A program made the position numbers and the translations under genes. Below, piece by piece: positions 38,308-62,472 of a stretch of DNA of 64,000 bases; position 1 is the first letter of the stretch; each line of letters starts with the position of its first letter. The notes below the pieces were generated by a model, which made no database searches, had not been told where the DNA came from, and saw only the letters and a program-made list of their open reading frames with translations. The stretch is from an uncultured Desulfosarcina sp. (lineage in GTDB: Bacteria > Desulfobacterota > Desulfobacteria > Desulfobacterales > Desulfosarcinaceae). The stretch is taken from positions 384,001-448,000 of the forward strand of contig CAXXWQ010000002.1 in assembly GCA_963674945.2 (NCBI GenBank), read 5' to 3'.

Positions 38308-38584
38308 AGAAATAAGGCAATAATGGGGACAGGTACCAAATGGTTACTGGGGGCTTGGAGCATGGAGGAAGCGGGGAGCAAAAAGTGATGGGTGGTGCGT
38401 GAGTTATAAAACAACGGGGTCAGGTCTACATTCTTGACAAAACATCGTCGCCCTCATTAACACACAGATCCACACAACCCCACACGAACATTAAAAAAAC
38501 TGAAGATGGGAAGGTAAGAAATTTGGAAGCATAGAAAAGGCCTCTCCGCTTCCTAAGATTTTATAGGCTAAATAGAATAACGCT

Positions 38585-38985
38585 TTACAGCACTCGGGTG
38601 AACTCTGATGCCTCCCTTATGACAGATTCGATATCAGGTTTAGAAGCCGCTACAACTTCATTTATAAGGTGCTTGTGTTCAGGATGACTATTTAAATGTG
38701 GGAAATGTGGTGTGTTGTCATATCTGAAGATCAAATTATTCTGTTCATCTTGAAAATGGTACCTATAACCAAGATGCCGAATGAAATGATCTTCCGCTAT
38801 GGCTGCTTCATTCAGTTCAAGCAAGCAAGCAAGAATCCGTCAATCATGCGAATTCTCAAGCGGATATTGATCCGATCTTCGGTAAGGGCCTCCACATAGT
38901 AGGCTTCAACATATGCATCTTCAAGACTATGAATCACATCATCCAAGTCTGAAATATATTTCTCAAGAGCTGAGTTAAGCAACAT
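38585..38985 (-). pseudogene. DUF6516 (TumE-like) toxin, frameshifted by (CTTG)4
   Basis: YRYHFQD...FRYDNTPHFP...HPEHKH; ATG at 38985 is out of frame; removing 8 nt at 38818-38833 gives 130 aa. Confidence 0.7.
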
Positions 38986-39211
38986 GGCGAAGCTGCTTTT
39001 CCAATTTTCGATAAATCGCTAAATAATGACGATAATCATTTGCCCATTCAATAAATTCTATTGAATCATCCAGAAGCCCTTTGGAAAATTTGTCATAGAA
39101 GTCCTCGGAAGCCATCTTGTGATTTTTTTCAGACCAACTTAGGCGTTTGGAAAGTGCAACCAAAGCATCAAGGCTTGAATCATATTCAATGCGGTTTTTT
39201 TGCATTTGCAT
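38975..39211 (-). CDS. TumA-like antitoxin partner of DUF6516
   Basis: EKNHKMASEDFYDKF..G.LDD..EFIEW; overlaps toxin start; GGAGG RBS. Confidence 0.7.
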   Translation of the reverse strand: MQMQKNRIEYDSSLDALVALSKRLSWSEKNHKMASEDFYDKFSKGLLDDSIEFIEWANDYRHYLAIYRKLEKQLRHVA

Positions 39212-39353
39212 GGCCTCCATTTTATTTGAAAACGTCCCGAACATATTAGATCAATATATCAATAACTTACTGTGTTGTCAATTGGAGAATAATAATGGAT
39301 ATGGAACAGCTATGGGGTCAGGCAGGGTAATGAATCCGTTAAATATAATTTTA

Positions 39354-39790
39354 GCCTCTCGCAGAGTTGCAGAGAGCGCAGAGCTAAAGAACAGGTTTGG
39401 GTTGGCTTCGCCAAAAAGAGATATAAACGATTCAGCTACTTTCTTGATTTGATTTCCATCTCAGAAATCAAATGAAACTCCGCGTCTCTGTGTTCTTGAG
39501 CGAAGCGGGCGGGATGAAATAATATGGACCTTAACAGGCTATCCTCCCAAATTATCAAAGCTACTATCAATATACATAGGGAACTGGGTCCCGGATTGTA
39601 AACCAAAAGAATTGGCCTCTCGCAGAGTCGCAGAGAGCGCAGAGCTAAAGAACAGGTTTGGGTTGGCTTCGCCAAAAAGAGATATAAACGATTCAGCTAC
39701 TTTCTTGATTTGATTTCCATCTCAGAAATCAAATGAAACTCCGCGTCTCTGTGTTCTCGAGCGAAGCGGGCGAGAGAAATAATATGGGCC
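39354..39790 (+). repeat. two near-identical ~177-bp copies (about 39354-39530 and 39615-39790) of a CGCAGAG...CTCTG...GAGCGAAGCGGGCG element
   Basis: Direct comparison; related elements at 3137-3241, 44365, 45575-45650, 46522, 47549, 56824-56925. Confidence 0.9.
39524..39601 (+). pseudogene. GxxExxY (PD-(D/E)XK) protein N-terminal remnant
   Basis: MDLNRLSSQIIKATINIHRELGPGL*, stopping just before the ExxY motif. Confidence 0.7.
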
Positions 39791-39791
39791 T

Positions 39792-40161
39792 AAGCCGTGG
39801 AAACCGTTTCCGGTGAAGAGATCAATGCCTTTCTGAACCGACATCTTGCAAATAGCCAACATGTTCGTACCGATGCACTGCCAGCTATGAACATTATTGA
39901 AGAAGGGTATGAACATGAGAAAAAAGTGACACCCCGGAAGAGGCTTCTAAATGGCTGCCCTTGGTTCACATTGTTATTGGAAATATGAAAACCTTTTTGA
40001 ACGGCACATTTCATGGCGTAACTCACAAATATCTCCAGGAGTACCTGGATGAATTTTGCTACCGTTTTAATCGACGCTTCTGGGAGTCCGAACTCCCATT
40101 TCGTTTGTTGAATGCCTGCATGGCTCATGCACCAGCTACTGGCTGAAAATAGTTAAGAGCC
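39792..40161 (+). pseudogene. IS1595-family 3' remnant (different element from 14351/60028)
   Basis: VRTDALP, frameshift, VHIVIGNMKTFLNGTFHGV..KYLQEYLDEFCYRFNRR; end TTAAGAGCC. Confidence 0.75.
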
Positions 40162-40208
40162 ATTTAAATTAATGTTCCGAAGGGCCGAAATAAGCCCCTT
40201 GTTAAAGG

Positions 40209-40613
40209 TTAATACCAATCTTCGATATTAAGCCCTCTAATACGTTCAAACTCTTTGAGATTATGTGTTACCAGGACACCTTTGTTCGCTAAGGCAGTTC
40301 CAGCAATCAATACATCATATGGACCAATTGGAGTGCCCTGTTTCTCAAGTGTCGCACGAATGTTTGCAGCACATTCTGCTTCATCTGTCCCAAAGGGAAG
40401 GATGCTGGTAATGGATAATAAGGATTGAAGCTGTTTCATACGTTCTTCAGGATAAACTGATTTGGCGATGCCGACCTCCAACTCATAGAGTGCCACTGTT
40501 GGGATTCCGATGCGATTCGGAGGATTTGCCAGCAGAGACTTAGCTACGTTCCCCACTCCTTTGAAAAAGTAAATCAGAGTATTGGTATCCAGGACATACA
40601 TGCTTCCCATCAT
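40209..40613 (-). CDS. vapC: VapC PIN toxin
   Basis: LDTN, YELEVG, GTPIGPYDVLIAGTA, VTHNLKEF. Confidence 0.9.
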   Translation of the reverse strand: MMGSMYVLDTNTLIYFFKGVGNVAKSLLANPPNRIGIPTVALYELEVGIAKSVYPEERMKQLQSLLSITSILPFGTDEAECAANIRATLEKQGTPIGPYDVLIAGTALANKGVLVTHNLKEFERIRGLNIEDWY

Positions 40614-40840
40614 ATTTTTTCTCGACTATAATCTTTGCCCATACTATCTCTAATCTCTTCAGCATTTGGCATCTCTTTCCACGCCCCTGCAAGACGTACA
40701 ACATTTTCCGGCCATGTTGTTGCGGTTTTTTCACGAATCAATTCCGCAATCCATTTGCTTTTTGACACACCGTTTTTTTCAATCATATTCAGCATTTTCT
40801 TTTCAGTATGATCGTCGAGGTAGATTGTTACTTGTCCCAT
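40610..40840 (-). CDS. CopG/RHH antitoxin
   Basis: QVTIYLD, VSKSKWIAELI; coupled to vapC. Confidence 0.8.
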   Translation of the reverse strand: MGQVTIYLDDHTEKKMLNMIEKNGVSKSKWIAELIREKTATTWPENVVRLAGAWKEMPNAEEIRDSMGKDYSREKI

Positions 40841-40981
40841 GCTTTCTGCTCCTTTTGAAATGCGATAAAGTATAAGTTAGCATATATGTGGTTAAAGTCA
40901 AGTTCTGTTTCTTAAGGTCAAATCGGGGTCACATTCTTGACAGAACTACCGGGGGGAAGATGTAACACCGCCGCCGAGTGG

Positions 40982-41157
40982 GCGGTATTGATTACTGTTT
41001 ACCGACCGGATCCTGAAAAATGGGTAATTGGACACAAAGGAAGAAAACATCATGAAACCTTTTGAGAAATGCCCTGTCAGATGAAGCATGTAAAAATCCC
41101 CTTGAAGGGGTCATCGGTTCAACCCTGTTGGGTAGCCCGGAATTTGTCACATTCATT
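40982..41157 (+). pseudogene. mosaic remnants: DUF4258 C-terminus, YgiT-type Zn-finger N-terminus, RAYT/Y1-transposase-like fragment
   Basis: AVLITVYRPDPEKW; MKPFEKCPV (41052); DEACKNPLEGVIGSTLLGSPEFVTFI (41080-41157). Confidence 0.55.
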
Positions 41158-41354
41158 ATCGTATACACGATCCGGTCTTGAAAGCTTAAACGAGCAGAAT
41201 AAAAGCCTTTCAACTGTCCGACCAATTTTTTGCAGGAATAAGGTTCGTGGCATATTTGGTGCTCAAGAATATCTTTGAGTTTGGATTTCAGGCGTGGTGT
41301 GAGTTTATTCACATCTTTTAAAGATTCTTTCGTGAATCTGACTTCATACATCAA
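41158..41354 (-). pseudogene. YoeB/RelE toxin, 3'-truncated copy of 59312-59566
   Basis: Near-identical to 59312-59566 up to RIVYTI, then unrelated sequence. Confidence 0.8.
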
Positions 41355-41623
41355 GATTCCCCAAAGACGTCATTCATTGAATAGGTGTCGCCATCATTCA
41401 TTTGGTTCACAGATCGGTTCAAACTTTTCAGCATGCCTGGAATTGAAAGAAGTTCAAGGGTTTCAATGAGGCTTTCATATTTTTCTTCAGAGAGCATGAC
41501 AACGGTACCTTTTGGGTGCTGAATTCGAAATATCTGGTGCTTTTCGTTGGCACCTTTCACGATTTCGAAAAAATTACGGCGGGCATCCGTTGCTGATATG
41601 TTGTTTTTCATTCTAAACTCCAA
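41351..41623 (-). CDS. Phd/YefM antitoxin (copy of 59563-59823)
   Basis: ISATDARRNFFEIV, VMLS.E.YESLIETLELLS. Confidence 0.88.
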   Translation of the reverse strand: MEFRMKNNISATDARRNFFEIVKGANEKHQIFRIQHPKGTVVMLSEEKYESLIETLELLSIPGMLKSLNRSVNQMNDGDTYSMNDVFGES

Positions 41624-41689
41624 TAAAAATGTACATTATTACGTACACCATAGGCCTGTGGATGATTTTTGTCAATATTCATATTTTAT

Positions 41690-41825
41690 CTTGACCACCC
41701 TCATTTCCGGTATTTTCGAACCAGAAAGCGGTCGAGCGTTGCTCTTCCTTTACGGCATCATCTTCGAAAACGCTGTCGTAAGCATCCTTTAAACAGGTCG
41801 CTTTTTCATCTGCTGTCCTTTGTCC
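41690..41825 (-). pseudogene. remnant copy of antitoxin 48925-49179
   Basis: Shares CTTGACCACCC...CGAACCA...CACGGCATCATC.TCGAAAACGCTGTCGTA-like sequence with 48934-49050. Confidence 0.7.
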
Positions 41826-41910
41826 AACTGCAAGCCATATTTTTGGAGGTTGACATTTGTCGATAGAGTAGCTACTTTTGTCACTTAAGGTAGCTACAAA
41901 AGGGGGCGAA

Positions 41911-42189
41911 ATGATTCAAGCGGGCGTAAAGGAAGTGAAGAATAATTTAAGCCGCTTTTTAAGCCGGGTAAAAACGGGAGACGAAGTTTTGATCACAGAA
42001 AGGGGCAAACCAATAGCACGCATTATCAAAGAAAACTCAAAGCGAATGGATATACGTGAAGAGCTCAGGCCTTTAATTGATAGCGGTTCGGTTGTACTGC
42101 CAAGCAATAGACTGAAAAAGGAAAAGTTACGTAGTTACACGGTCCCTGGAAAGGCCGCTTCTGAAATGGTCATTGAGGATCGCAGATGA
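41911..42189 (+). CDS. Phd/YefM antitoxin
   Basis: AGVKEVKNNLSRFL..V..G.EVLITERGKPIARI. Confidence 0.9.
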   Translation: MIQAGVKEVKNNLSRFLSRVKTGDEVLITERGKPIARIIKENSKRMDIREELRPLIDSGSVVLPSNRLKKEKLRSYTVPGKAASEMVIEDRR

Positions 42190-42614
42190 TCCTGTATTTG
42201 GATACAAGTGCGCTCGTGAAAAGATACTTCCGTGAACCTCATACGGAAGAAATCATCTCACTGTGGCAAAAAGCGGATGAAGTCATTACATCATCGGTTG
42301 CGTATGCGGAAGCGATGGCGACTTTTTATAGAAAAAAGAGAGAAACCGGGATCCATGTTGATGAAATTCAAGCGATCATTAATGATTTTTCGGAGGATTG
42401 GAACTGTTTCATCCGAATTAGAGCAGATGACGAATTAAATCGATATATAAACCAGGTTACTGCCCGGTATCCACTTCGTGGATTTGATGCCATTCATCTT
42501 TCTTCAGCACTGATCGTTTTTCCGAAATTTGAAAAGGAACTGCTTTTTTGTTGCTTCGACAAACAATTGGTCGATGCTGCCGAAAAGGAAGGGCTTTGGA
42601 TTTTCCAAGGGTGA
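42186..42614 (+). CDS. vapC: VapC PIN toxin
   Basis: YLDTSALVKRY, LRGFDAIHLSSA, FDKQL. Confidence 0.9.
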   Translation: MILYLDTSALVKRYFREPHTEEIISLWQKADEVITSSVAYAEAMATFYRKKRETGIHVDEIQAIINDFSEDWNCFIRIRADDELNRYINQVTARYPLRGFDAIHLSSALIVFPKFEKELLFCCFDKQLVDAAEKEGLWIFQG

Positions 42615-42664
42615 TTGGTGAGAAACAACAGGCTGTAGGAAGTAAGGACAGAGTGATGAGCAAA

Positions 42665-42949
42665 CTAAGACAAGGAATGGATGCTTTGCAACACATCTGT
42701 TGCTCTAATATTTCCTTTAACACCCTTTTCAGATAGCATGTCGATGGCTTCGGATATGGAAACGCCTAATTCGGTCGACACCTCTCTAATGGAGAGTTTT
42801 CCGTTTTGATATAGGTCTGCGATGTATGTTTCAAAACCGATCCTGGCAAGTTTTCGGAATGACTGGGTGCTGTCAATTTTTTCGATTCTAGACAGGAAGT
42901 TAACAGCATGCTCTATGTCTTGGGGAATCCGGATGGATTTCACTTTCAT
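42665..42949 (-). CDS. UPF0175-like antitoxin (copy of 52927-53211); upstream PIN partner internally deleted
   Basis: Near-identical protein; 42946-43058 retains only the 3' end of the PIN gene fused to its promoter. Confidence 0.8.
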   Translation of the reverse strand: MKVKSIRIPQDIEHAVNFLSRIEKIDSTQSFRKLARIGFETYIADLYQNGKLSIREVSTELGVSISEAIDMLSEKGVKGNIRATDVLQSIHSLS

Positions 42950-43582
42950 GGTACCCTCCCAATCATGGTATAAACCATCGCATATTCGTCATCGCTGATA
43001 AACGGCGCCAACTGCTCGAACATCCAGATCGCCTTTTCCTGTTTGAAATGTTTCAGTGTTTTGTAATTATTGTATTACGCGTCGTCAACGAAAAACAAGG
43101 CAAAGGGCTCGCACAAATAGGTCGGTCTGCATTCTTGATAGGCCCCCATTATAAACTACTGCCTCACGAAAATGTCAGAGAAATGATTAGCCACGGACAC
43201 ACACGGACGGGAAAACAGGTGGTAGACTATCGGCTACAGGGGGAGAGGTGAAAGCGTTGAGCCTGGCGCGTGGAACAAACAGTTATGGGTGATGAGTGAG
43301 GAACGCAGGTGGATAGGCTATAGACTGTAGGCTGTAGGAAAAGGGTTTAGATCGGATATGGGAAGGGAAATAGGATTTGGGTCATGGGCAAATAGCTTAG
43401 AGAAGGGAGCGGGGAGCAAACAGTATGGGTGATAGGAAAATTAGCTGATATCTCATAGGGGATAGCTGATAGGGTAAAAAGAAATAAGCAAGAAGCGGAG
43501 AGCGGGTTGTCAATAAATGATTGACAAAAGGCTATTGTATATCCATATATGTATATACAATAGCTTTTATTTGGAGAGCGAA

Positions 43583-43813
43583 ATGGATACGGCAAAAATC
43601 TTTAAAAGTGGAAACTCTCAAGCGGTTCGGTTGCCCAAAGCATATCAATTCGATGTGACAGAGGTGCAAATATTTCGAAGGGGTGATGAAATTGTTTTGA
43701 AACGTAAACCCCAGAACCTATCCAAAGCATTCGAGCTTTTAACCAGCATGTCGGATGATTTCATGGACGATGGACGTTGTCAGCAACCGTTACAGAATAG
43801 GGAGCCACTATGA
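43583..43813 (+). CDS. vapB: VapB (AbrB-type) antitoxin
   Basis: TAKIFKSGNSQAVRLPK. Confidence 0.92.
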   Translation: MDTAKIFKSGNSQAVRLPKAYQFDVTEVQIFRRGDEIVLKRKPQNLSKAFELLTSMSDDFMDDGRCQQPLQNREPL

Positions 43814-44217
43814 CGGTGATGCTGGACACTGATATTTGCATCTATACGATAAAGAAAAAACCTCGAAATGTCCTCAAACATTTTGAGAGATGCCAGCCAG
43901 GATCGGTTGTTATGTCGGTTATCACTTTTGCCGAATTGATCAATGGAGCGAAAAAGAGCCAATACGTGGAAGATAATGTTCGTCGTTTGAATGCCCTGAG
44001 TGAACTTATCGAGGTGCTTCCTTTCGAAAAAAGCGCAGCTATTGCATATGGTGATGTTCGCTCAGACCTTGAGAAAAGAGGCTTGATTATCGGTAGCAAT
44101 GATATGTTTATCGCTGCCCATGCATTGAGCTTGGACCTGACATTGGTTACCAACAACCAAAAGGAGTTTGGCCGGGTCAAAGGATTAAAAATCGAGAATT
44201 GGGTTAATGGTGAGTGA
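43810..44217 (+). CDS. vapC: VapC PIN toxin
   Basis: MLDTDICIY, IGSNDMFIAAHA, VTNNQKEF. Confidence 0.92.
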   Translation: MTVMLDTDICIYTIKKKPRNVLKHFERCQPGSVVMSVITFAELINGAKKSQYVEDNVRRLNALSELIEVLPFEKSAAIAYGDVRSDLEKRGLIIGSNDMFIAAHALSLDLTLVTNNQKEFGRVKGLKIENWVNGE

Positions 44218-44421
44218 TGAGGGGGGGAACGCAGGTGGATAGGCTATAGACTGTAGGGTTATATGCAAAGAGCATACGGCGTGGGGCTTGGAGCTTGGAG
44301 GAGAGAAACAGAAGTCAGGAATTTGGGAAAAGCAGAAATTAGGAAGAGCCAAGGCCCTTTTTTGCACCGCAGAGTCGCAGAGTCGCAGAGATCCCAGAGG
44401 GTTATCATTTTTTGAGATAAA

Positions 44422-44742
44422 TCATGCTGCGAAAAGAATTTCACCATCACGAGCGAAATCAGTTACAAATGAATCTCCTTGCTCCCATTCCTCTTGGGTC
44501 ATTGCTATTGCTTCAATCGGTTCAAATATTTCATAAATTGCTTCTGACATAATATCAATTCGTTCCCAGTAATCTTTGCCAATGAAATTTTCAGATATGA
44601 CGATAAGGTCAATATCACTTCCTTCTTGATGGATACCGGAAACATATGATCCATAGAGTATGATTTTTGACGGGCTGATACCTTTTGCCTTAATTGCTTG
44701 ATGAAATTCATCGACTATTTTTATAACTGCTTTTTTATCCAT
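44422..44742 (-). CDS. minimal nucleotidyltransferase (MNT) antitoxin
   Basis: ILYGSY..G....GSDIDLIVI. Confidence 0.9.
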   Translation of the reverse strand: MDKKAVIKIVDEFHQAIKAKGISPSKIILYGSYVSGIHQEGSDIDLIVISENFIGKDYWERIDIMSEAIYEIFEPIEAIAMTQEEWEQGDSFVTDFARDGEILFAA

Positions 44743-45101
44743 GCAACGACCTCCCTTCCCTGGGTCAGGATATCATCGACCACTGCTTTGCTATAAACTT
44801 TCTGAAGTTTAACGAGATTTTCCGGATATCGGGTAGGAATGCTGGCTTCGTTTAATTTTACGATAAACTTGCCATGGTCGGGTGACGGTTTGATACCCAT
44901 TTGGTTTAATAGATATATCAGATTGTGGGATTTAGGTGGTATTGAATGATGTTTTTCGTAATAAAGACCTTTCAACGCCTTCTCAATGGCAAGATGGCAC
45001 ATGAAAACAGCATAGATGTACCGTCCGCCATCATACATGTAGACTGCTGTGTCCATATCATAGTCAGATTGGTTCATCCATTCTATTGTCCGTTTTTCCA
45101 T
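44721..45101 (-). CDS. HEPN domain protein
   Basis: FMCHLAIEKALKG, SHNL, TRYP. Confidence 0.9.
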   Translation of the reverse strand: MEKRTIEWMNQSDYDMDTAVYMYDGGRYIYAVFMCHLAIEKALKGLYYEKHHSIPPKSHNLIYLLNQMGIKPSPDHGKFIVKLNEASIPTRYPENLVKLQKVYSKAVVDDILTQGREVVAWIKKQL

Positions 45102-45729
45102 AATAAATGATTAACAGACAAATTATTGTAAATTCAAGCAGTAATTTATTGGTGAGGTAAGCAGGTGGATAGGCAATAGAAAAATAGTGGTCAGTGATGC
45201 GTAATGGATGATGCGCGAATTAGCTGATAGCTCATAGGAGATAGCTGATAGTGGTTATAGGCTTTAGGCTAAGCAAGATGACTTTCATCCATTTAGCCAC
45301 GGACACACACATATTACAGGCTATAGATTTTAGGCTGTAGGAAAATAGCGGTTAATGATCAGTCATGGGTGATGGGAAAAGGGCAAATAGCTTGGAGCGA
45401 AGAGCGGAGAACAGAAGTTAGGAAGAGCGGAGGACCGGAAGGGAAAGAGGTGATAGACTGTAGGCCGTAGGCAAAGAGCATACGGCGTGGGGCTTGGAGC
45501 TTGGAGGAGAGAAACAGAAGTCAGGAATTTGGGAAAAGCAGAAATTAGGAAGAGCCAAGACCCTTTGGTTTTGCACCGCCCTGCCTGTCCCGCCTATCGG
45601 GGCTTCGCTCGAGTCGCTGAGATCGCAGAGGGTTGTTTGTCCCCTTCGGGGAGAGTGGGGATGGGCGATAGGCCATAGACTTTAGGCTGTAGGCTGTAGA
45701 CTATAGGCGAAACAGAAAACTTTATGTGC

Positions 45730-46080
45730 TTAAGCGAAACTACTTTCTTCAATACCAAAGATCGATGCAAATTTTTTTCGTGTTGCTTTTCGGTAAACAG
45801 CGTTTTGGCGTTCCCATTTGGCAATGGTTGATTGCTTTACGTTCATCCTGCGGGCGAGTTCCGCCTGCGTCCAACCCCTTTCAATACGTTCCCTTTTTAC
45901 AGGGTTCATGAAAATGTAATCTTCGGCCTCCTTGCGGTCATATAGCGATTCCGTCGCCACCGAACGGATTGCATCACAATCAGTGTCGTCTTCAATTTTT
46001 TCCAACAAACGGTTGAATTCGTCTACCGGTAATACGATGAATTTAATTTTCCCTTTTTCTTTAATGGTTTGATATTCCAT
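45730..46080 (-). CDS. Xre/HigA-type HTH antitoxin
   Basis: RIERGWTQAELARRMNVKQSTIAKWE. Confidence 0.85.
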   Translation of the reverse strand: MEYQTIKEKGKIKFIVLPVDEFNRLLEKIEDDTDCDAIRSVATESLYDRKEAEDYIFMNPVKRERIERGWTQAELARRMNVKQSTIAKWERQNAVYRKATRKKFASIFGIEESSFA

Positions 46081-46083
46081 GAT

Positions 46084-46344
46084 TTATCCTTTGTAAATGT
46101 CTCCACGTGATCGTACCTTAACGATTTCAATTGTTAAAACATCATCATTGCGCGTGTATATGATGCGATATTTCCCCACCCTGAGTCTCCAACCGATCCT
46201 GCCTTTTGGCACAGCAGTATCGAGGTCCGGACTATCAGGGTTTTCAGCCAGGGCATGAATTTTCTCGACAATAGCGGTTTTCGATTTTAATGGGAGGCGC
46301 GCAATATAGTTTCTTGCGCTTCGCCTATATTTTAGTTCATACAT
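46084..46344 (-). CDS. RelE/ParE/HigB toxin
   Basis: WRLRVGKYRIIY, RSRGDIYK; toxin-first order. Confidence 0.9.
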   Translation of the reverse strand: MYELKYRRSARNYIARLPLKSKTAIVEKIHALAENPDSPDLDTAVPKGRIGWRLRVGKYRIIYTRNDDVLTIEIVKVRSRGDIYKG

Positions 46345-46777
46345 ATAGAGCTATATAGCTTAAAGGGGTATATTTGTCAAAGCGTATTTTTCTTTGAAAC
46401 GGCTTTCGGAGAAAGCAGGTGTTTAGGCTGTGGGCGATGGGTAATAGGCAATAGGTGATAGTCTATGGGCTATAGGGGATAGCTGATAGGCTGTAGGCTA
46501 TAGGGGGAGATAACAAAAGGGCCTCTCGCAGAGTCGCAGAGCTAAAAGAGGTTGTAGGATAAAGACAACCAATTTTAAATTATGAATCGGTAATTTTGAA
46601 TTAGATAAGCCTCCGGCAATGGGGCTTAAATAATTTCGCAAAAGGAATTTGTAAAATGAAAGGGTTCTCGATATGGTATTGCTTTTATTTTTATGTATTG
46701 TATAAATGTTATAGGCATTGAAAAAGATATTTAATAATACATATATTTAAATGTAATGATCGTAGTTGGGGGGCAAC

Positions 46778-47023
46778 ATGGTTTCAACGGTAACTATCAA
46801 AGGCCAGGTAACAATTCCTAAAGAAATCAGATTGTTTCTTAATATTAAACCTAGTGACAAGGTTGATTTTTCTGTTGAAAACGGACTAGTCGTCCTGAGA
46901 CCAATCAAAACATTGAAAAATTTCAGAGGGAGTGTCCCAGCCAAAGGGACAGGAGACTTTGATTTGGAAAGATCAAAAGCCAAGCATGAAGTTGCTAATC
47001 GTATCGTTGAGGCTATGGAATGA
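46778..47023 (+). CDS. AbrB/MazE antitoxin
   Basis: TVTIKGQVTIPKEIR. Confidence 0.9.
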   Translation: MVSTVTIKGQVTIPKEIRLFLNIKPSDKVDFSVENGLVVLRPIKTLKNFRGSVPAKGTGDFDLERSKAKHEVANRIVEAME

Positions 47024-47430: not shown

Positions 47431-47635
47431 TTTATACAATTAAGAAAGGGGGCAGCAAAGAGCGTGGAGTGGAGAACAGAAGTTAGGAAGAGCGGAGGAT
47501 GAACAAAATAATTTGAATTATAAATTTTGAAATAAAATTGTTAATATTCACCGCCCGCTGCGCTTGAGTCGCAGAGAACGCAGAGCAGACTATGGGCTAT
47601 GTGCTATTGTTTCTGTCGATGGCAACCAGGTTATC

Positions 47636-53678: not shown

Positions 53679-54079
53679 GTGTTAGATTGTAATTATTGTA
53701 TTACGCGTTGTCAACGAAAAACGAAGCAAGGGGGGCGCACAATTAGCTCGGTCTGCATTCTTGTCAGGCTCTGCTATAAATTTCTGCCTCACGAAAAAGT
53801 CAGAGAAATGATTAGCCACCCCAGTTAAATTCGCTTCGCTTTTCACTATCGTGAATGTAACGGGATAGACAGACCCATTCGGAAGGACACGGACAATATA
53901 GGTGATAGGCTATAGGCTGTAGGCGATGGGTAATGAACGAATGCTGAAGGCCGCCAATTCGCTCAATTTTTAAATTGGGAACAGTTGGGGTAGGTTAACC
54001 TAAGCAGTATCGGTACAAATATATATCGGATTTTAAATTTGAAAATTAAGATTAGCTTTTTTTCATCCTGTCCGTTTGA

Positions 54080-55003
54080 ATGAAGAATTCCTATTGTCAT
54101 TGCATCATAAAGGCTTCAAAAATATTTATATTTTTAAGTATTTTTGTCTTTCAATTTGTTTTGATCCAGACATTCAGTGACGTAGCCTTGGCTTATTTGA
54201 CCGTTTCCACAGAAAAAAGACTCATTAAAAGCATTGTACCTCATTCAAAAGATATCCCTGTTTCTGCATCGCACCTTCTTGAAATATGCGGTGATGATAC
54301 AAAAGATCCATCCATATACAGTGGCAATGTAAATTATCCAAACAACAAAACATTATTTTGCTATCTGCCCATTCCCGAGGTCGTTACAAGGCAAATGGAT
54401 CGATATGTCGCCTCGGAATTCAGCATTGAAAATCTGTTGTATGCCAACCTCAAAATTGAAAGGTTAATGAGAGAATACGATGACCTTGAAAAGAGAAGTC
54501 ATGAAATTTTAGAAGGGCTGGATGTACCATTTATCCATGGTGTAGAGTACGAACAACTGTTGCAGCAAAAAGCATCTTTCGTTACCCTTGAAATCGATCG
54601 TGTTACCGAACAGTCCAACTTCATCGCCGGTCCGGAACTGGTTTATGCAACACAAAATAATTCAACTGGTTCAAGAAAACCAATTGCTGCAAAGAAGACC
54701 TTCGGGTCGACACATCGGTTTCGATTCGAGAAACCAGGTGTCAGTTTATCGACCGGATCATCGGTAACCCGTGGATCCTCTCATAAATCCAATGATGCCA
54801 ATCATTCACAGCCGGAATTCGATGCATCCGAATCAAAAAATATACAGTATGGGGTTGATTCAAAGGATCAGTTGCCTCGGCTGATCAGAGTCCTGAGATC
54901 ATTATTCAGATATCTGTTTGAGAATAAAATCGAGGCGGTTTTGTATATCATTTTGATTTACGGTATTGGTCATTTGGTGTTTTCTGCGCGTGGTAAGGGC
55001 TAA
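54080..55003 (+). CDS. hypothetical exported protein with C-terminal TM anchor
   Basis: Hydrophobic N-terminus, C-terminal AVLYIILIYGIGHLVF; no family recognised. Confidence 0.6.
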   Translation: MKNSYCHCIIKASKIFIFLSIFVFQFVLIQTFSDVALAYLTVSTEKRLIKSIVPHSKDIPVSASHLLEICGDDTKDPSIYSGNVNYPNNKTLFCYLPIPEVVTRQMDRYVASEFSIENLLYANLKIERLMREYDDLEKRSHEILEGLDVPFIHGVEYEQLLQQKASFVTLEIDRVTEQSNFIAGPELVYATQNNSTGSRKPIAAKKTFGSTHRFRFEKPGVSLSTGSSVTRGSSHKSNDANHSQPEFDASESKNIQYGVDSKDQLPRLIRVLRSLFRYLFENKIEAVLYIILIYGIGHLVFSARGKG

Positions 55004-55149
55004 TTGGTGATGGGGAAATAAGCTGATAACTCATAGGCGATCGCTGATAGGACACGGATGATGATCGAAGGGAAAAAATGAATTATTGTTTTGCCACGGA
55101 CACACACAGACGCACACGGACAAAAGAAAAAGCAGTAAATTTTACATTT

Positions 55150-55305
55150 CAGTATGGGATACAGGCAAACCTTATCGATAGGCCCGGCTGCGATGGTGAG
55201 CGCCAATCATGAAAACAATGTTTTCCTGCTCGTCAATTTCGTAGAAAAATCGCCATGAACCGATACGATAACGCCATGTTGGCGGTGTAAAATTTTTTAG
55301 TTTTT
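55150..55305 (-). pseudogene. RelE-like toxin 3' fragment
   Basis: KKLKNFTPPTWRYRIGSWRFFYEIDEQENIVFMIGAHHR. Confidence 0.7.
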
Positions 55306-55455
55306 TTATGTTGGAACCGTAATGGTGACCGTTCCCGAATACTGATTGTTGATATCATTCGATATGATGACAACTGGCCTGGTTTTGGCGATTTCCCGCC
55401 CCAGTGTCGGATCTAATGAGGCCAGATGAATCTCCCCCCTTTTAATATCGGTCAT
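55306..55455 (-). pseudogene. MazF/PemK toxin, truncated
   Basis: IKRGEIHLASLDPTLGREIAKTRPVVIISND, then junction to the RelE fragment. Confidence 0.8.
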
Positions 55456-55693
55456 CCCATCCCTCCAAATCGATGACATGAAATTCATCTGCCATATCAA
55501 GGCTTTCTGTATTACAGGCGCGATACCCTTCAGCGAGTTGCTTTTCTAGTTCTGTTTTTCTATCTTGCCCAATCTTGAAGCGAATGGCGTCGGCGATGAA
55601 TGAACTCCGTTTTCTTGGGCCTGATATGGAATCCACCAATTGGATTAATTCTTTCGGTAGGGTGATATTAATGCGTACATTTTCTACGTTCAT
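55442..55693 (-). CDS. RHH antitoxin
   Basis: RINITLP, KRSSFIADAI, LAEGY. Confidence 0.82.
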   Translation of the reverse strand: MNVENVRINITLPKELIQLVDSISGPRKRSSFIADAIRFKIGQDRKTELEKQLAEGYRACNTESLDMADEFHVIDLEGWDDRY

Positions 55694-55949
55694 AAGTTCG
55701 CCCCTTTTTTGTGACATATTGTGTGTAAAATAATGTGTCAAATTGTGGTGAGTGTCAAGAGCTTAGAGCGGAGAGTAATCAGTGATGAGTGAGGAAAGCA
55801 GGTAGATAGTCTTTAGACTGTAGGCTGTAGGAAATTAGCTTATAGCTCATAGGGGATAGCTGATAGGGTAAAAAGCATTGAGCCTGGAGCTGGGAGCAAG
55901 CAGTGATGGGTGATGCGTAATGAGTGATAGGAAACAGGTGGTGTGATAC

Positions 55950-56369
55950 TTATGACTGCAGACTATGGGGTATGGTTTCTGTCACAAAACCTGGAAAACG
56001 CTTTTGAAGTTTTTTATCAAAACTGAAGAGATTTTTAGCCCCATAGTTTTTTGCTTGTTCTACAATTAACAGATCAGCAAAATCACCACCATTTACATAT
56101 TGCTGGGCAGCCTTACGAATCGCTGTCGAGTCGGGAAGGGAAAAAACCGGTGCGGATAGAAGGTTTCCCATGAACATCGAAATTTCTTCACGGTTGCATT
56201 GATAAACAGATTCAAGAACCCATACGGTTTCAATAATCACTTCTGTCAGAAGCAACAGCTTTTTCCCGTTGGCTTCAGCAATATCAATAATTTCTTGTGC
56301 TTTTTTTGCCTGACGTTCATCATCTTCAACCAGCACCCTGACAATGGCGTTGGTATCGAGTGCAATCAT
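55950..56369 (-). CDS. vapC: VapC PIN toxin
   Basis: ALDTNAIVRVL, ETVWVL, DFADLLI, SFDKK. Confidence 0.9.
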   Translation of the reverse strand: MIALDTNAIVRVLVEDDERQAKKAQEIIDIAEANGKKLLLLTEVIIETVWVLESVYQCNREEISMFMGNLLSAPVFSLPDSTAIRKAAQQYVNGGDFADLLIVEQAKNYGAKNLFSFDKKLQKRFPGFVTETIPHSLQS

Positions 56370-56620
56370 TTCGCCGCCCGTTGAAGACGTCTTTTCTGAA
56401 TTTCATTTTCCATCTGGTCAAGAGAAACTATCCGTTCTTTCTTTCTATGTTTTAACATTCCAAAAATAGATGATCCCGATCTTTGTTCTTTCGTAACAAG
56501 GACCTTCCCATCCTCAATTGGAGTGAAGACAAGCTTCTCAGAAGTTTCGATATTAAGAAAATCTCTGATTTTTTTGGGAATTGTTATTTGTCCCTTGGAT
56601 GTTACAGTTCCTGTTTCCAT
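56366..56620 (-). CDS. AbrB/MazE antitoxin
   Basis: TVTSKGQITIPKKIR. Confidence 0.9.
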   Translation of the reverse strand: METGTVTSKGQITIPKKIRDFLNIETSEKLVFTPIEDGKVLVTKEQRSGSSIFGMLKHRKKERIVSLDQMENEIQKRRLQRAAK

Positions 56621-56934
56621 AGTCGTTCTTTTCTGTTTTAAATTTCCTTACATGTTGGTAAGGATATCAGCGCGACCTGCTATTGTCAATGGTGATTGGG
56701 GAGGGCAAAGGGTGATGGGCTGTAGGAAAAGAGCATGGAGCTGGGAGCGTAAAAATTTTTTGCCACGGACACACACGGACTGACACGGACGAGGTTTTTA
56801 TTAGCCTTCGGCTGGAAATGATTCACCGCCCACTTCGTTAAAATTACAGTGATCGCAAAGGTTTGTTTGTCCCCTTCGGGTAGAAAAACATTACATCTCT
56901 ACGAGCTTTGCGTCTTTGTGGTGAAAAATAACAT

Positions 56935-57070
56935 CATAGATAGGCTTGGCAGCGGGGATGCGTGCCAATCATGAAAACAATTTTCTCCAGTTCTTCAATT
57001 TCTTAGAAAAACCGCCATTAACCTATACGGTATGCCACGTTGGAGGTGTAAAATTTTTTAGTTTTTTTTA
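56935..57070 (-). pseudogene. second RelE-like 3' fragment (degenerate copy of 55150-55305)
   Basis: Shares GCCAATCATGAAAACAAT and GGTGTAAAATTTTTTAGTTTTTTT. Confidence 0.65.
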
Positions 57071-57147
57071 GGACAGGATTAACAAGATCGACATGGTTAT
57101 TTCGCCACGGGCGAATAAAACTCCTTTTTGCATTCCAGTATCTTCTT

Positions 57148-58119
57148 TTATATGTTTGCCTGGTAAACGGCAGTACGTTTATCTCCGGTTTTTTTTAGAA
57201 GCTCCAATTTAACTCCATGTTGCAGGTCGCGACTGGCTGTAGCTGTGGAAATTGTTTTAAATAATGCTTGGTATGCTTTTCGTGTAAAAAAATCTGCACC
57301 GAACGAGTCGATCGCCAGATTCAACCTGTCTATGGAAGTAAGCATCACGGATCGCGTTGCGGTCATTAACTCATGAAGCGCATCTATGATGAGGCGTAGC
57401 ATCAAAATGACAAAACCGGTGCAGTCACCTGAATCATCACCCGTGGCCAATTCCCGATAATAGTCATCTTGGCGGGCTTTGATGAAATCTTCAACTGGAA
57501 GATACTCAAAGATGGGATGATATACCATCAATAACCGGGTTTGCCATAGCCTTCCCATTCGGCCGTTACCATCAATAAACGGATGAATGTACTCCACTTG
57601 GTAATGAAACCGGCAGGATTTTATAAGCCAATGATCATCACTGCTTTTCAGATAGGTGAAAAGACTCTGCATCATGGATGCAACGTTTTTCCAGGAAGGA
57701 GACTCATGAAATATATCACCTGGCCGCATTACCCCAATGGGACCGGTGCGAAATGTACCCGATGATGGAATTAGATCCTCCATCAACATCTTATGCGCTT
57801 TCAGGAATGAGGAGATCGACAAGGGCGCAAGTCTTTCGATGGACCGATAGGTGCGAATGGCATTTTGAACTTCCAAGATATCCTGCTTGGGACCGATAAC
57901 CCGTTTTTCATCGATCAGACTTGTCACCTGTTCACGAGTTAACGAATTACCTTCGATGGCAAGGGACGACTGGATCGTATGGATACGGTTTTTTCTCTGT
58001 AGCATAGGGCTTGGCCTGCGCAGTTTGACCCCTTCCAACTGGCCGATTTGTTCTGCGATGCCGGTCATCAGGTTAATTGCTTTTGGAGTTGTCCGGCAGG
58101 TATGCATTTTATGCTTCAT
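57148..58119 (-). CDS. Fic family protein (class II-like, internal inhibitory motif)
   Basis: HPFIDGNGRMGR; SSLAIEGN; C-terminal HTH-like TASRDL; start 58119 preferred because the promoter lies at 58172-58199. Confidence 0.9.
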   Translation of the reverse strand: MKHKMHTCRTTPKAINLMTGIAEQIGQLEGVKLRRPSPMLQRKNRIHTIQSSLAIEGNSLTREQVTSLIDEKRVIGPKQDILEVQNAIRTYRSIERLAPLSISSFLKAHKMLMEDLIPSSGTFRTGPIGVMRPGDIFHESPSWKNVASMMQSLFTYLKSSDDHWLIKSCRFHYQVEYIHPFIDGNGRMGRLWQTRLLMVYHPIFEYLPVEDFIKARQDDYYRELATGDDSGDCTGFVILMLRLIIDALHELMTATRSVMLTSIDRLNLAIDSFGADFFTRKAYQALFKTISTATASRDLQHGVKLELLKKTGDKRTAVYQANI

Positions 58120-58339
58120 TTCCGTGATCTCACTGTTGTTCGTCCAGAAATAGCTTTTACAGCGGATATTTATAGTATCATATGATACTATCATGTCAAG
58201 TATGCGTTTTTTCGAATTCATAGGGGGCGCATCTTAATTATAGACATTTCTGGTGAGAAGAGCTTGGGGCATGGAGAAGGGAGCGGAGAACAGAAGGTAG
58301 GAAGTTGGGAAGAGCAGAAGGGCGGAAAAGCTATTTTGA

Positions 58340-58637
58340 TATTCCACCGCAAAGGCCTTAATTGCACGAAAGGGCTTTCTGCCATCGATAGCCATTCCTT
58401 GATGTCTATTTTCAGGATGAGTCTCTTTTTTGCTGCCAGTAATGCCATTTCCCAGACACTGATGCACGATACATAAATACTATCGTTTTTTACCGCTTTT
58501 TCTATATGTTCGCTGGCTGTTTTGGACAGTAAATCCGGGTTGCTGAGAAACCAGATCCAAACGTGGGGATCCATTACGATCATTTCAGAGTTTCCCAGTC
58601 GTCAAGACCAATCGGCGCAAACGGATCGATATTGCAT
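58340..58637 (-). pseudogene. truncated VapC plus 3' tail of its antitoxin
   Basis: MIVMDPHVWIWF...SCISVWE; upstream IDPFAPIGLDDWETLK*. Confidence 0.7.
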
Positions 58638-58684
58638 TGAGTCTCATATGAATATATTATTGAGACTCAAAGGGAGGTCATTAG

Positions 58685-58972
58685 ATGAAATTTTTAAGTG
58701 TAAGAGAGCTAAAATCCAAATCGGCAAAGGTTTGGAAAGAGTTACCCAGTCAGAAAGAAATGATCGTGACCAGCAATGGCAGGCCTATTGCCATGCTTTC
58801 TTCTATAAATGAAGATAATCTCGAGCAGGTATTAAATGCATTTAGAATTGCAAGAGCAACCAATGCAGTGGCTTCGATCCAATACGAATCGGCAGAACAA
58901 GGGACGGATAAAATTTCTATGGAGGAAATCGAAGTTGAAATCCAAGCAGTAAGATCCAGCCGAAAACAATGA
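58685..58972 (+). CDS. Phd/YefM antitoxin
   Basis: LSVRELK, IVTSNGRPIAML. Confidence 0.88.
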   Translation: MKFLSVRELKSKSAKVWKELPSQKEMIVTSNGRPIAMLSSINEDNLEQVLNAFRIARATNAVASIQYESAEQGTDKISMEEIEVEIQAVRSSRKQ

Positions 58973-59310
58973 AAATTGTACTGGATACAAATGCACTTGT
59001 TTCTGGTCTGCTCACGCCATTTGGTTCGAGCGGCGAGATCGTTCGAATGGTTTTTTCAGGTGAACTTACGTTGTTTTTGGATGCTCGGATATTATCCGAG
59101 TACAAAGATGTTTTGCAGCGTCCAACATTTTGTTTTAACAAGGAAAATGTTGCGACCTTGATTGATTTCATAAAATATTTCGGGCGTTTCGTTTCGAGTT
59201 CACCATTAAGAGATCGGTTGCCGGATCATGACGACGAACCATTTCTCGAAGTGGCCATTGCCGGTGATGTAAATGCCTTGATTAGTGGAAATATCGTTCA
59301 TTACTTTTGC
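58969..59310 (+). pseudogene. PIN-family putative toxin, 3'-truncated against yoeB
   Basis: IVLDTNALVSGL, DDEPFLEVA, ISGN; then reads antisense into yoeB. Confidence 0.7.
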
Positions 59311-59311
59311 A

Positions 59312-59566
59312 TCAGTCACCATAATGGGTCCTTGCCCTATGTATGTAGACCTTATGGTTATCTTCGTCAATTGTATACACTATTCGGTCTTGAAAGCTTA
59401 AACGAACAGAATAAAAACCTTTTAATTGACCAATCAATTTTTTGCCGGAATAGGGTTCGTGGCATAGTTGGTGCTCAAGAATATCTTTGAGTTTGGATTT
59501 CAGGCGTGGTGTGAGTTTGTTCACATCTTTTAAGGCTTCTTTCGTGAATCTGGCTTCATACATCAA
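59312..59566 (-). CDS. yoeB: YoeB/Txe (RelE superfamily) toxin
   Basis: KKL.G.LKGFYS.RL...DRIVY, RARTHYG. Confidence 0.85.
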   Translation of the reverse strand: MMYEARFTKEALKDVNKLTPRLKSKLKDILEHQLCHEPYSGKKLIGQLKGFYSVRLSFQDRIVYTIDEDNHKVYIHRARTHYGD

Positions 59567-59823
59567 GAATCCCCAAAGACGTCATTCATAGAATAGGTAT
59601 CACCATCATTCATTTGGTTGACAGATCGGTTCAAACTTTTCAGCAAGCCTGGAATTGAAAGAAGTTCAAGGGTTTCGATGAGGCTTTCATACTCTTCTGC
59701 AGAGAGCATGACAACGGCACCTGTAGGATGCTGAATTCGAAATATCTGGTGTTTTTCGGTGGCCCCTTTCACGATTTCGAAAAAATTACGGCGGGCATCC
59801 GTTGCTGTTATATTGTTTTTCAT
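59563..59823 (-). CDS. yefM: Phd/YefM antitoxin
   Basis: ITATDARRNFF; TGTAC-core operator at 59842-59858. Confidence 0.85.
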   Translation of the reverse strand: MKNNITATDARRNFFEIVKGATEKHQIFRIQHPTGAVVMLSAEEYESLIETLELLSIPGLLKSLNRSVNQMNDGDTYSMNDVFGDS

Positions 59824-60027
59824 TCTAAATTCCTATGAAAATGTACACTATTCCGTACAGGATAGGCCTGTGGATGATTTTTGTCAATATTCAAGTTTTG
59901 AAAAGAATAAATCAGCCACAGACCCACACAAATTACAGACTATAGGCTGTAGGCTGCAGAAAATTAGCTGAGAGGTCGTAGGTGATAGCTGATAGGACAT
60001 GGATGATGATCGAAACAAAAATTTGAA

Positions 60028-61075
60028 CTGGGGTATGCACTTAAATCCAGCACATACTATATGTTGTGGCCCAGGTCATCGTCAATTGGATCGAGATTTA
60101 AATTTGCTGCCCCTTCCAAAAACGGTAACGATGCACCTTTAAGAGTACTAGCTGGGGCAGGGTCCACCATCACGGCCTGTTGGACCAGCCTGTAAAATAG
60201 TTTTCCGCGAGACACTGATGTTCTACGGTTGAACCTGAATGTGAATTCATCCAAATAGTACATCAAATGAGACGGTCTGACCGCCCCTTGATAAGTACCA
60301 AGTAACCATCGTTTCATGAGCGACGCTACCAAATGTACAATCTTCAAGTCATGCGATGGAATCGCAATATGCTTAAATCCTTTATCGCCAAGGCTGCTAT
60401 AGCCGGGCCAATCATCCGTCCTGATGGTGCTGCCTGGCTGGGCGATTTCTTGTACAAATTGAGTCAGACTATCTCCCGATGCGTCTTCGAGGTGCCAGAG
60501 TCTAATTCGCCCAATTCCTTTTCGGCCTTTATCCTCCACGGCAATACCGACCAAAGCTTTACCTTCAGCACCCCGACCGCGTTTTCCAGACTTTTTCCCA
60601 CCGACATAGGTTTCATCAACTTCAACAATCCCGGACAATCGGTCACGTCCTGGACGAACCATTGCTCTTCGAAGTTTATGGAGCCATTGCCAGGCGGTAT
60701 TATAACTCCCAAGGTTAAGTACTCTCTGAAGCCCAAGTGCATTAGCTCCGTACTTCTGACCTGTAATGTGCCACATAGCCCGAAACCAAAGAGACAAGGG
60801 CTTTCTGGTGCCGTGAAAAATTGTACCGGAAGTTATCGTAGATTGATTTCCACAATCAGTACAATGAAACTGGGATCGTTTAGTTCTCCACGAGGATGCA
60901 GAACCGCAATGAGGGCAACGGAAGCCTTCGGGCCATCTAAGAGCCATCAAATAGTCAGTGCATCCAGCTTCAGAGCTAAATCGTTTTTCAAATTCTATCA
61001 ACGTTCTGGGGTAATCTTCCTCCATAGACTGGTACACTATATGTTGTGGCCACTGGAGTCAAGTGCATACCCCAG
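60028..61075 (-). mobile_element. IS1595-family element, copy 2 (inverted relative to copy 1)
   Basis: Same IRs; TSD AATTTGAA at 60020-60027 and 61076-61083. Confidence 0.92.
60057..61037 (-). CDS. IS1595 transposase
   Basis: Protein identical to 14389-15369. Confidence 0.93.
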   Translation of the reverse strand: MYQSMEEDYPRTLIEFEKRFSSEAGCTDYLMALRWPEGFRCPHCGSASSWRTKRSQFHCTDCGNQSTITSGTIFHGTRKPLSLWFRAMWHITGQKYGANALGLQRVLNLGSYNTAWQWLHKLRRAMVRPGRDRLSGIVEVDETYVGGKKSGKRGRGAEGKALVGIAVEDKGRKGIGRIRLWHLEDASGDSLTQFVQEIAQPGSTIRTDDWPGYSSLGDKGFKHIAIPSHDLKIVHLVASLMKRWLLGTYQGAVRPSHLMYYLDEFTFRFNRRTSVSRGKLFYRLVQQAVMVDPAPASTLKGASLPFLEGAANLNLDPIDDDLGHNI

Positions 61076-61168
61076 AATTTGAATTGTTGTTTTGCCACGG
61101 ACACACACAGACGGACAAGGACGGGGTTTGATCAACTGTTCAACTTCGGTTGGGAGAGTAGAATTATA

Positions 61169-62065
61169 ATGCGTAGAACGATAATTTTTTGCATTTGCTC
61201 GTTATCCATTCTATCAATCTCATGTGGTCACCAGGCCAAAAAGCTCAATGCGGCCAATTCACGGCAGGCGCCCATCATTATTGATCACACCTGCACAGAC
61301 CTCGACCGTATTCCTGAGGAGTGGATTGGAAATGCCAAGAAGGACATCCGCATCGCTTATGGCCATACCTCCCACGGCAGTCAGATCATCAGCGGCATGG
61401 AACGTCTTTATCGTGAAAACAAGCTTTTTGCATTCAGCAACGCAGGCTATGGAAGCACTCTTGCCGTCTTTGACCGAGAACCCGGAGGTGATCTGGGAAA
61501 TCCCGACTGCGTCACGTGGGCCGAGCGTACGCGCGAGTACCTGAATTCATGGGGTGATGTAAATGTCATCATGTGGTCATGGTGCGGACAGGTTTCATCC
61601 GCAACCGACAAAGATATCGAAACCTACCTGAATTTAATGAATGAGCTCGAGAACGAATTTCCAGAAGTTGTCTTTGTCCATATGACAGGCCACTTGGACG
61701 GAACCGGTAAGAATGGCAACCTGAATGTAAGAAACGATCAGATCCGCCAGTATTGCAGGGAAAACAACAAGGTGTTGTATGATTTCGCCGATATTGAAAG
61801 CCATGACCCTGATGGCCGGTATCTGCTGGAAGAGTATGCGGACGATGGGTGCAATTACAGAAAGAACAACCAAAAGAGAAATTGGGCCGATGAGTGGTGT
61901 TTACGCCATCCAGGCAGTTGTGAACCATACGCGTGCGCCCATTCCAGACCTCTTAACTGCGATTTGAAAGCCAGAGCCTTTTGGTGGATGGTGGCACGGC
62001 TGGCTGGATGGGGGGATTCGCCACGGACCCACACGGACGCACACGGACAAAGAAAGAAAAGATAA
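61169..62065 (+). CDS. hypothetical lipoprotein, possible SGNH-like hydrolase fold
   Basis: Lipobox SISC; YGHTSHGSQI, MWSWCG, FADIES, CAHS. Confidence 0.65.
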   Translation: MRRTIIFCICSLSILSISCGHQAKKLNAANSRQAPIIIDHTCTDLDRIPEEWIGNAKKDIRIAYGHTSHGSQIISGMERLYRENKLFAFSNAGYGSTLAVFDREPGGDLGNPDCVTWAERTREYLNSWGDVNVIMWSWCGQVSSATDKDIETYLNLMNELENEFPEVVFVHMTGHLDGTGKNGNLNVRNDQIRQYCRENNKVLYDFADIESHDPDGRYLLEEYADDGCNYRKNNQKRNWADEWCLRHPGSCEPYACAHSRPLNCDLKARAFWWMVARLAGWGDSPRTHTDAHGQRKKR

Positions 62066-62181
62066 ATTCGCCACGGACCCACACGGACGCACACGGACAA
62101 AAAACAGATAGGAGATAGCGAACAGGAAGGAATAAAACTGCAAATCGCCTATTGACACACCCCAAAAGTCATTGAATTTTC

Positions 62182-62396
62182 GCTATCAGCTATCAGCTAT
62201 CAGCTATCAGCTATCAGCTATCAGCTATCAGCTATCAGCTATCAGCTATCAGCTATCAGCTATCAGCTATCAGCTATCAGCTATCAGCTATCAGCTATCA
62301 GCTATCAGCTATCAGCTATCAGCTATCAGCTATCAGCTATCAGCTATCAGCTATCAGCTATCAGCTATCAGCTATCAGCTATCAGCTATCAGCTAT
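62182..62396 (+). repeat. perfect heptanucleotide tandem repeat (GCTATCA)x30 + GCTAT
   Basis: 210 bp of exact units. Confidence 0.97.
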
Positions 62397-62472
62397 ATCG
62401 TCTGTGTTCGTCCGTGTGTGTCCGTGGCTAAAATTAAACGGCTCTGACGAAAAAGAATTTAGAAAAGCTTTA

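Follow-up and report, generated by a model that had tools for sequence, protein, structure and literature searches.

A one-way, repeat-spaced array of toxin-antitoxin modules in a polysaccharide locus of an uncultured Desulfosarcina

The stretch of DNA analysed here (the window, 64,000 nucleotides, G000:C2:384001-448000) belongs to an uncultured Desulfosarcina sp.; G000 denotes the source genome, C2, C3 and C4 its contigs, and all other G-numbers its relatives. Downstream of a long plus-strand series of glycosyltransferase-type genes, the window contains an array of toxin-antitoxin (TA) modules on both strands (38308..61159, that is, 38.3-61.2 kb), which comprises 17 TA or TA-like units, 13 antisense and 4 sense, along with 4 decayed duplicate fragments, 3 insertion sequence (IS) pieces and one orphan open reading frame (ORF), the gaps being made up of plus-strand repeats, here called arm words. 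The neighbouring genes resemble a PEP-CTERM exopolysaccharide region (NCBIfam matches below the cut-off), and the setting of the array is a polysaccharide (“sugar-coat”) gene cluster, hypervariable according to one of the explanations weighed below. The 24-kb array holds 7 of the 27 PIN, 5 of the 10 MazE/AbrB and 4 of the 14 Phd matches of G000, and 12 of the 27 PIN matches, those 7 included, fall within C2:349-459 kb. This is a real, extreme case of a one-way, repeat-spaced TA array, likely shaped by repeat-promoted shuffling, a reading that would account for the concentration of some TA families of G000, of which roughly a quarter to a half sits in 0.3% of its DNA.

The array opens with a TumA/TumE module (38585..39244, minus strand), followed by a pair of F-type hairpin units, each of 180 bp and 97% alike, that flank a 27-codon GxxExxY remnant (39351..39791, plus; remnant at 39524-39604) and by an antitoxin/PIN module also present in G021 and G022 (40209..40840, minus). 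A YefM/YoeB copy (41158..41687, minus), 91.5% identical to 59370-59899 and cut within yoeB, is directly adjoined by an antitoxin fragment (41689-41810), with no intervening repeat. Next come a sense Phd/PIN module (41878..42614, plus) and an internally deleted duplicate (42663..43194, minus) of the PIN_9/UPF0175 module at 52925-53819, the shared sequence stopping 9 bp into an E arm. The gap that follows is typical (43190..43510, plus): left arms of families E, D, C, B and A are arranged serially, and blocks of 83-154 bp are shared with the gaps at 52788 and 55774. The MazE-type/PIN module behind it (43517..44217, plus) is sense in 6 of 7 copies across genomes; in the window, a 7-bp inverted repeat (43503-43526; TTGTCAA, 7 bp, TTGACAA) makes the -35 box of this sense module, an arrangement not seen in the relatives' copies compared. 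Farther along, a 128-bp direct repeat (44246..45579, plus; 93%, copies at 44246-44370 and 45453-45579) brackets an antisense HEPN/MNT module (44422-45101), and a ParE/HigA module (45730..46382, minus) forms a unit of about 660 bp, from the stop codon to just beyond the -35 box, that occurs in many contexts. The region 46766..49240 encompasses, on both strands, AbrB/PIN (sense), AbrB/PIN (antisense) and RHH/MazF (antisense) modules; the local C-type hairpin behind it (49285..51890, plus) has its reverse arm (49351) split by IS66 (49370-51866), with an 8-bp target duplication. There are about 10 near-identical copies of the IS66 in this arm (49345-51890) genome-wide. The remainder (51987..59890, both strands) consists of AbrB/PIN, PIN_9/UPF0175, the orphan ORF (54080-55003, sense, 307 aa, with no Pfam or NCBIfam match and no usable Atlas match), antitoxin/MazF, AbrB/PIN, a MazF fragment, Fic, a PIN fragment, Phd/PIN_3 (sense, clipped) and YefM/YoeB; an IS1595-family element, multi-copy in the genome, lies beyond it next to an E arm (60015..61070, minus). 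For four modules, the array also contains a decayed second copy, oriented like the first.

An original prediction, made from the letters of the window, held that most gaps between TA modules share a vocabulary of 7-nt period, and this is borne out: in the 26 gaps (6,218 bp), the period-7 autocorrelation is 0.072 (0.055 at lag 14 and 0.037 at lag 21), compared with 0.019 in shuffled gaps and 0.016 in genes. There are 201 heptamers with at least 5 occurrences; the majority strand has 1,132 of their copies and the opposite strand 164, against about 24 such heptamers and strand counts of 93:33 in shuffled gaps. The word positions given in the prediction hold in part, the exact word being present at 22 of the 31 checked and degenerate variants at the other 9 (TGATAGC, for example, is exact at only 2 of 6). 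The claim of a single orientation regardless of gene strand stands for the motif families overall (94 plus and 2 minus matches in C2:420-440 kb) and for GAAGTTA (4:0, plus) but not for TGAATTA (3 plus, 2 minus), which has no polarity; the repeat polarity is unrelated to the strand of the TA genes. Blocks of at least 35 bp connect 17 of 21 gaps, all 48 of them in direct orientation, and arm words are close to all 12 PIN genes in the locus, as opposed to 3 of 15 outside it and 11% of random places. Far from being uniform genome-wide, which would have spoken against the prediction, the repeats peak in C2:340-460 kb. Reverse arms were found, much as predicted, at 62182-62430 (30 A-heptamer copies plus one E arm), 49351, 18217 and 3450, although those at the distal end are separated from the TA stretch by a gene (61160-62065).

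On sequence grounds, the array repeats are the upstream (“left”) arms of hairpin elements that bracket four-helix-bundle and GxxExxY genes elsewhere in the locus. The four-helix-bundle genes of the locus (PF05635/TIGR02436) carry array words upstream and their reverse complements downstream; G000 has 10 PF05635 matches outside the array, 5 of which lie in C2:360-452 kb. The window itself starts with the end of an intact gene of this family (C2:383744-384133) and its downstream arm (1..133, plus), and others are found at C2:369146, C2:360382 (split) and C2:451602 (cut). The GxxExxY genes (TIGR04256; one at C2:376497) lie between palindromic units whose left arms are E and F words. Around 19 four-helix-bundle genes of relatives, array words are split 46 plus to 2 minus upstream and 8 plus to 81 minus downstream, and 16 GxxExxY genes show a weaker split (56:14 upstream and 33:15 downstream). 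Elsewhere in G000, the words mostly form left-then-right hairpin units, as read by eye, and a complete nested element (C2:454800-455290), with its right half retained, is matched by two gaps over 106 bp (90.6%) and 77 bp (92%). Because the words sit upstream of the element genes and this complete element shares its left half with gaps, the gap tracts are left halves of hairpin elements.

The array proper, in contrast, is devoid of the proteins named as candidate effectors in the prediction: profile searches detected no intact four-helix-bundle, GxxExxY or RAYT (repetitive extragenic palindrome (REP)-associated tyrosine transposase) gene in 38340-62430, the sole trace being the 27-codon GxxExxY remnant. 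The link to four-helix-bundle and GxxExxY elements thus stands at the level of the words, with the genes outside the array; PF01797 (Y1 transposase, RAYT) was not found beside the array repeats, its matches in G000 being confined to C3 and C4, and a REP-RAYT system was rejected on this ground, although one PF01797 match sits within a G015 array. Several other features of these elements were observed. Downstream arms often grow into long, pure heptamer runs of up to 30 or more copies, with upstream arms degenerate (C2:631663, C2:620680, window 62182-62396, L074 ~3700); tandem runs of 125-170-bp GxxExxY-type units, up to 7 or more copies long, are present in relatives (L020, L030, L031, L068). 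At C2:365136-366315 (L002 ~15100-16420), an antisense PIN module has reverse E arms on its left and a full E unit on its right, which runs counter to left-only spacing.

Ten other genomes of the genus contain TA clusters with arm words, mostly amid polysaccharide genes, and several of these enclose four-helix-bundle and GxxExxY genes; the TA lists of the relatives are incomplete because 300 of the 431 unlabelled small ORFs were scanned with Pfam. Sixteen TA families are represented in at least 2 of the 11 genomes, and 59 of their 60 copies keep the family orientation relative to the array (mean 51.6 and maximum 56 in 5,000 shuffles), the only exception being MazE/PIN in G009. The pairwise order of these families is random (28 same, 27 swapped). 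With G023R and G013a excluded, whose direction was set from local arms, the counts are 55 of 56 and 27:24. This combination of kept orientation and random order across the genus is a new observation; it bears out the predicted shuffling with fixed direction. Directional (one-ended) cassette addition, also part of the prediction, is not shown.

The explanation we favour, with a probability of about 0.55, is that the gaps are mosaics of upstream arms of these hairpin elements, copied in one direction, and that TA modules are probably duplicated, lost and put back through recombination between such co-directional left-half blocks, which would scramble their order while keeping their orientation. 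Under this scenario, complete nested elements would land at gene ends in the polysaccharide locus; unequal crossover, or excision and re-entry via left-hand blocks (through RecA or microhomology, with no fixed cut site), would multiply only the left halves. Flank turnover would outpace point mutation, selection would trim each unit to its working limits, and addiction would retain TA modules while other DNA disappears. Within this scenario, we infer the recombination itself, the enzyme behind it and the disappearance of right halves.

The boundaries of the modules are consistent with such a history. The homology of shared modules usually extends from around the stop codon to 0-40 bp past the -35 box. 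The ParE/HigA module was compared in 40 of 48 metagenomic loci: the 37 that include a right flank show 25 right contexts, and the 27 that include a left flank show 20 left contexts. Among pairs with at least 88% identity, which are not independent, functional limits account for 266 of 281 breaks on the right and 94 of 105 on the left, and homology resumes beyond the break in 0 of 156 right and 2 of 70 left pairs. In the pairs most alike (at least 95%), the break lies as much as about 150 bp farther outward, frequently where a repeat unit ends, and its position scatters, which argues against a fixed cut. Taken together, the boundary pattern fits imprecise exchange followed by trimming. The four sequencing runs, all from one study and none of RNA, were used as assembled contigs; over 37600-49400 and 51800-62150, the traceable joints correspond, at genome depth, to paralogous blocks in other parts of the genome. 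These contigs, which drop rare variants, yielded no circle or excision junction, so that this result is neutral either way.

Several observations weigh against the favoured recombination. Strict periodic tracts hold no excess of breakpoints between relatives (7 of 40 ends within 12 bp, compared with 41% expected), so the predicted breakage within repeats fails in its strict form; the breaks cluster instead along cassette borders and, among the most similar pairs, frequently where repeat units end. Within the window, several junctions are located inside genes or join modules without a repeat (41158, 41688, the deletion at 42.6 kb and 59311). Long flanking direct repeats accompany 13 of 95 TA units across arrays and 6 of 60 host and IS genes, with no excess, and the adjacency rank of the TA units, 0.58, equals that of host and IS genes. 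The polarity in relatives is about 2:1, with G-rich to C-rich tracts numbering 41:18 in 39 gaps before antisense TA modules and 35:21 in 41 gaps before host genes; the same count in the array of the window is 27:2 in 21 gaps. Because 51 of the copies are antisense, it is two sense families (9 copies) that carry the orientation signal beyond the antisense bias, and the kin genomes behind the 59 of 60 are not independent. Finally, among the loci analysed from beyond the genus (34 of 51 for HEPN, 23 of 24 for MazF), most HEPN and MazF homologues lie outside arm-rich arrays, and their orientation is mixed; at least 4 TA units occur in 3 of 75 loci, with arm runs in one of the three (L126, not independent of the genus set). 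Since these homologues mostly reside in other settings, the arms are not an obligatory part of the HEPN and MazF modules.

The link between words and element genes raises the possibility, which we regard as doubtful, of a dedicated capture system, in which four-helix-bundle proteins would recognise cognate heptamer arms and a GxxExxY (PD-(D/E)XK) nuclease would cut there, resulting in site-specific insertion in one direction. Fixed orientation with random order speaks for such a system, and in relatives the four-helix-bundle and GxxExxY genes sit inside TA arrays, on the host strand. In a tree of 27 four-helix-bundle proteins, the arm word follows the subfamily, with 13 changes compared with 19.4 on shuffling (0 of 200), although the labels were assigned after viewing the sequences and are common to kin. 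The locus has cognate genes for families A, B, G, E and F (three of them broken). However, the array contains no intact effector, and no cognate gene for family C was seen in G000; moreover, the scatter of break positions in the closest pairs and the variation of the arm vocabulary around one and the same module between genomes count against such a system. An integrase-independent gene-capture platform in polysaccharide loci, with four-helix-bundle and GxxExxY proteins acting in trans and heptamer arms serving as oriented landing sites on which integron-like TA arrays are built, could be proposed tentatively but seems rather improbable. The behaviour of the array appears tied to two very large protein families of unknown function, and the HEPN/MNT module within its 128-bp repeat, like the ParE/HigA unit of 660 bp, would be a convenient substrate for probing any action of these proteins on their arms.

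An opposite, passive explanation has TA modules arriving by ordinary horizontal transfer in a hypervariable polysaccharide locus, with the elements inserting independently at gene ends; unpaired right arms, C-rich on the sense RNA, would be purged as loaders of Rho, and orphan left arms would act as Rho sites for antisense TA transcripts. The plus-strand composition of the gaps (G 0.27, C 0.16), the presence of rho in the genome, terminator-like sites not above chance (20 compared with 19.3 in 38300-58200) and the gathering of breakpoints at functional limits are all compatible with this account. It leaves unexplained, however, the compound blocks copied between gaps and the families that stay sense, and the E left arm is C-rich and yet persists on the sense strand; as a whole, we consider it unlikely. 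Besides rho, a second, shorter Rho-like match, below the family cut-off, is located at G000:C2:556881-557972.

Beyond the TA stretch, the window contains a self-contained nested hairpin (62020..62430, plus) that consists of E left arms, an A left arm, a core, 30 reverse A heptamers and a reverse E arm; 160 bp of it recur at C2:349714. The gene between the two (61160-62065) encodes a 301-aa protein without a Pfam or NCBIfam match (unnamed Atlas clusters at 0.94), and may itself be cargo. Genes that look similar by eye occur in other arm-rich gaps of the locus (L003:9318-10163, L004 ~11670-12660), and the copy of the 160-bp segment accompanies a lone TA module within nested arms between host genes (C2:349650-350730; L001:19650-20000, L002:1-730). 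The distal arms invite the idea, part of the original prediction, that in a plus-strand transcript the upstream arms base-pair with their distal reverse counterparts and that the antisense cassettes are looped out, or the RNA processed around them, like an intervening sequence. In silico, 7 of 10 gap pieces do pair with 62180-62430, at least as well as the local partner does (z -3 to -7, compared with -3.5 for the local partner). The distal arms (62182-62430) have local folding partners (z -7.3), in a structure that leaves the majority of the 30 heptamers unpaired. Nevertheless, pairing flanks were found in 0 of 15 TA cassettes as opposed to 11 of 24 four-helix-bundle controls, so that looping-out of single cassettes is not borne out; a fully nested structure closed at the distal end was rejected for families B, C, D, F and G, whose reverse arms are absent from that end. 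The intervening protein gene also counts against looping, as do the long reverse-arm expansions beside four-helix-bundle genes elsewhere (C2:631663, 620680) and the fact that reverse-transcriptase matches in G000 are only partial, and we deem it highly improbable. An Rfam search of the window gave no match, and known RNA families were discarded as candidates; retro-capture was likewise dismissed, there being only three partial reverse-transcriptase matches in G000.

The polarity could also have been set by the direction of replication (single-stranded lagging template), as for attC sites, and not by transcription. Locus direction and GC skew agree in G000, G004, G015 and G018, and G023 offers a case in which they can be told apart: there, the skew is plus in 10 of 10 flanking samples and the host genes are on the minus strand, and a 10-kb segment has plus arms, with its TA modules flipped likewise. 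This is, however, one case only, and the neighbouring G023 segment follows the host strand. Inversion fits the flipped segment, given that its four-helix-bundle fragment is also flipped relative to the host genes, along with the arms and TA modules, and that an IS lies at the right edge; control by replication seems very far from probable. The two TA stretches of opposite polarity meet at L044-L045 (G023:C1:2099400-2110200).

Among the closest described systems are the 23S rRNA intervening sequences with an S23p/PF05635 ORF in Coxiella, which have terminal inverted repeats and heptameric repeats upstream of the ORF (PMC4990558). The protein family and the arm layout are the same, with intact examples in this locus; the array differs in that its flanks are protein genes, not rRNA, only left arms are present, the cargo flanks are unpaired and no PF05635 ORF lies inside. 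The neisserial intergenic mosaic element (NIME) arrays, in which the units are dRS3 inverted repeats of 20 bp, are reported only from Neisseria and proposed to promote recombination with incoming DNA (PMC1797815); they are likewise fast-changing intergenic mosaics near surface genes that differ between relatives, but the units here are one-sided heptamer arms, the cargo is TA modules and the over-represented words are different (no dRS3 search was made). The G-rich heptameric intergenic repeats of Xanthomonas and Nostoc share the heptamer period, the convergent pairs and a G-rich coding strand close behind stop codons; they consist of one word, evenly dispersed and without strand bias, and in the accessible text of that study have no link to a four-helix-bundle gene or a cassette array (PMC4692102). 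A literature search, in which subscription journals were thinly covered, found no publication on TA arrays spaced by such arms and did not turn up the name “short variant repeats”, which may have been given to repeats of this kind.

By analogy, the array works like an integron array but is not one. Sedentary chromosomal integrons and clusters of attC sites lacking integron integrases (CALINs) with TA cassettes consist of ordered, gene-sized units with fixed orientation, shuffled order and TA enrichment (PMC13108822), and retention through killing upon cassette loss is a plausible parallel with their TA cassettes. The spacers here, in contrast, are patchworks of degenerate heptamers whose make-up varies around one and the same module. 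A search of 38301-61160 with the attC consensus gave 0 RYYYAAC...GTTRRRY core pairs, compared with 3 in a control near the integrase of the genome, and there is no integron integrase beside the array, the only full TIGR02249 match being at C3:2206329 (attI was outside the search). An integron or CALIN was rejected on the basis of the missing core pairs and the location of the integrase on another contig; what the array presents is integron-like behaviour (fixed orientation, random order, tight trimming and TA enrichment) without an attC site or adjacent integrase. The full-length integron integrase itself (G000:C3:2206329-2207270) has the three attC-like core pairs within 4 kb and heptamer-arm units directly behind it, and two partial reverse-transcriptase matches lie 13-17 kb upstream.

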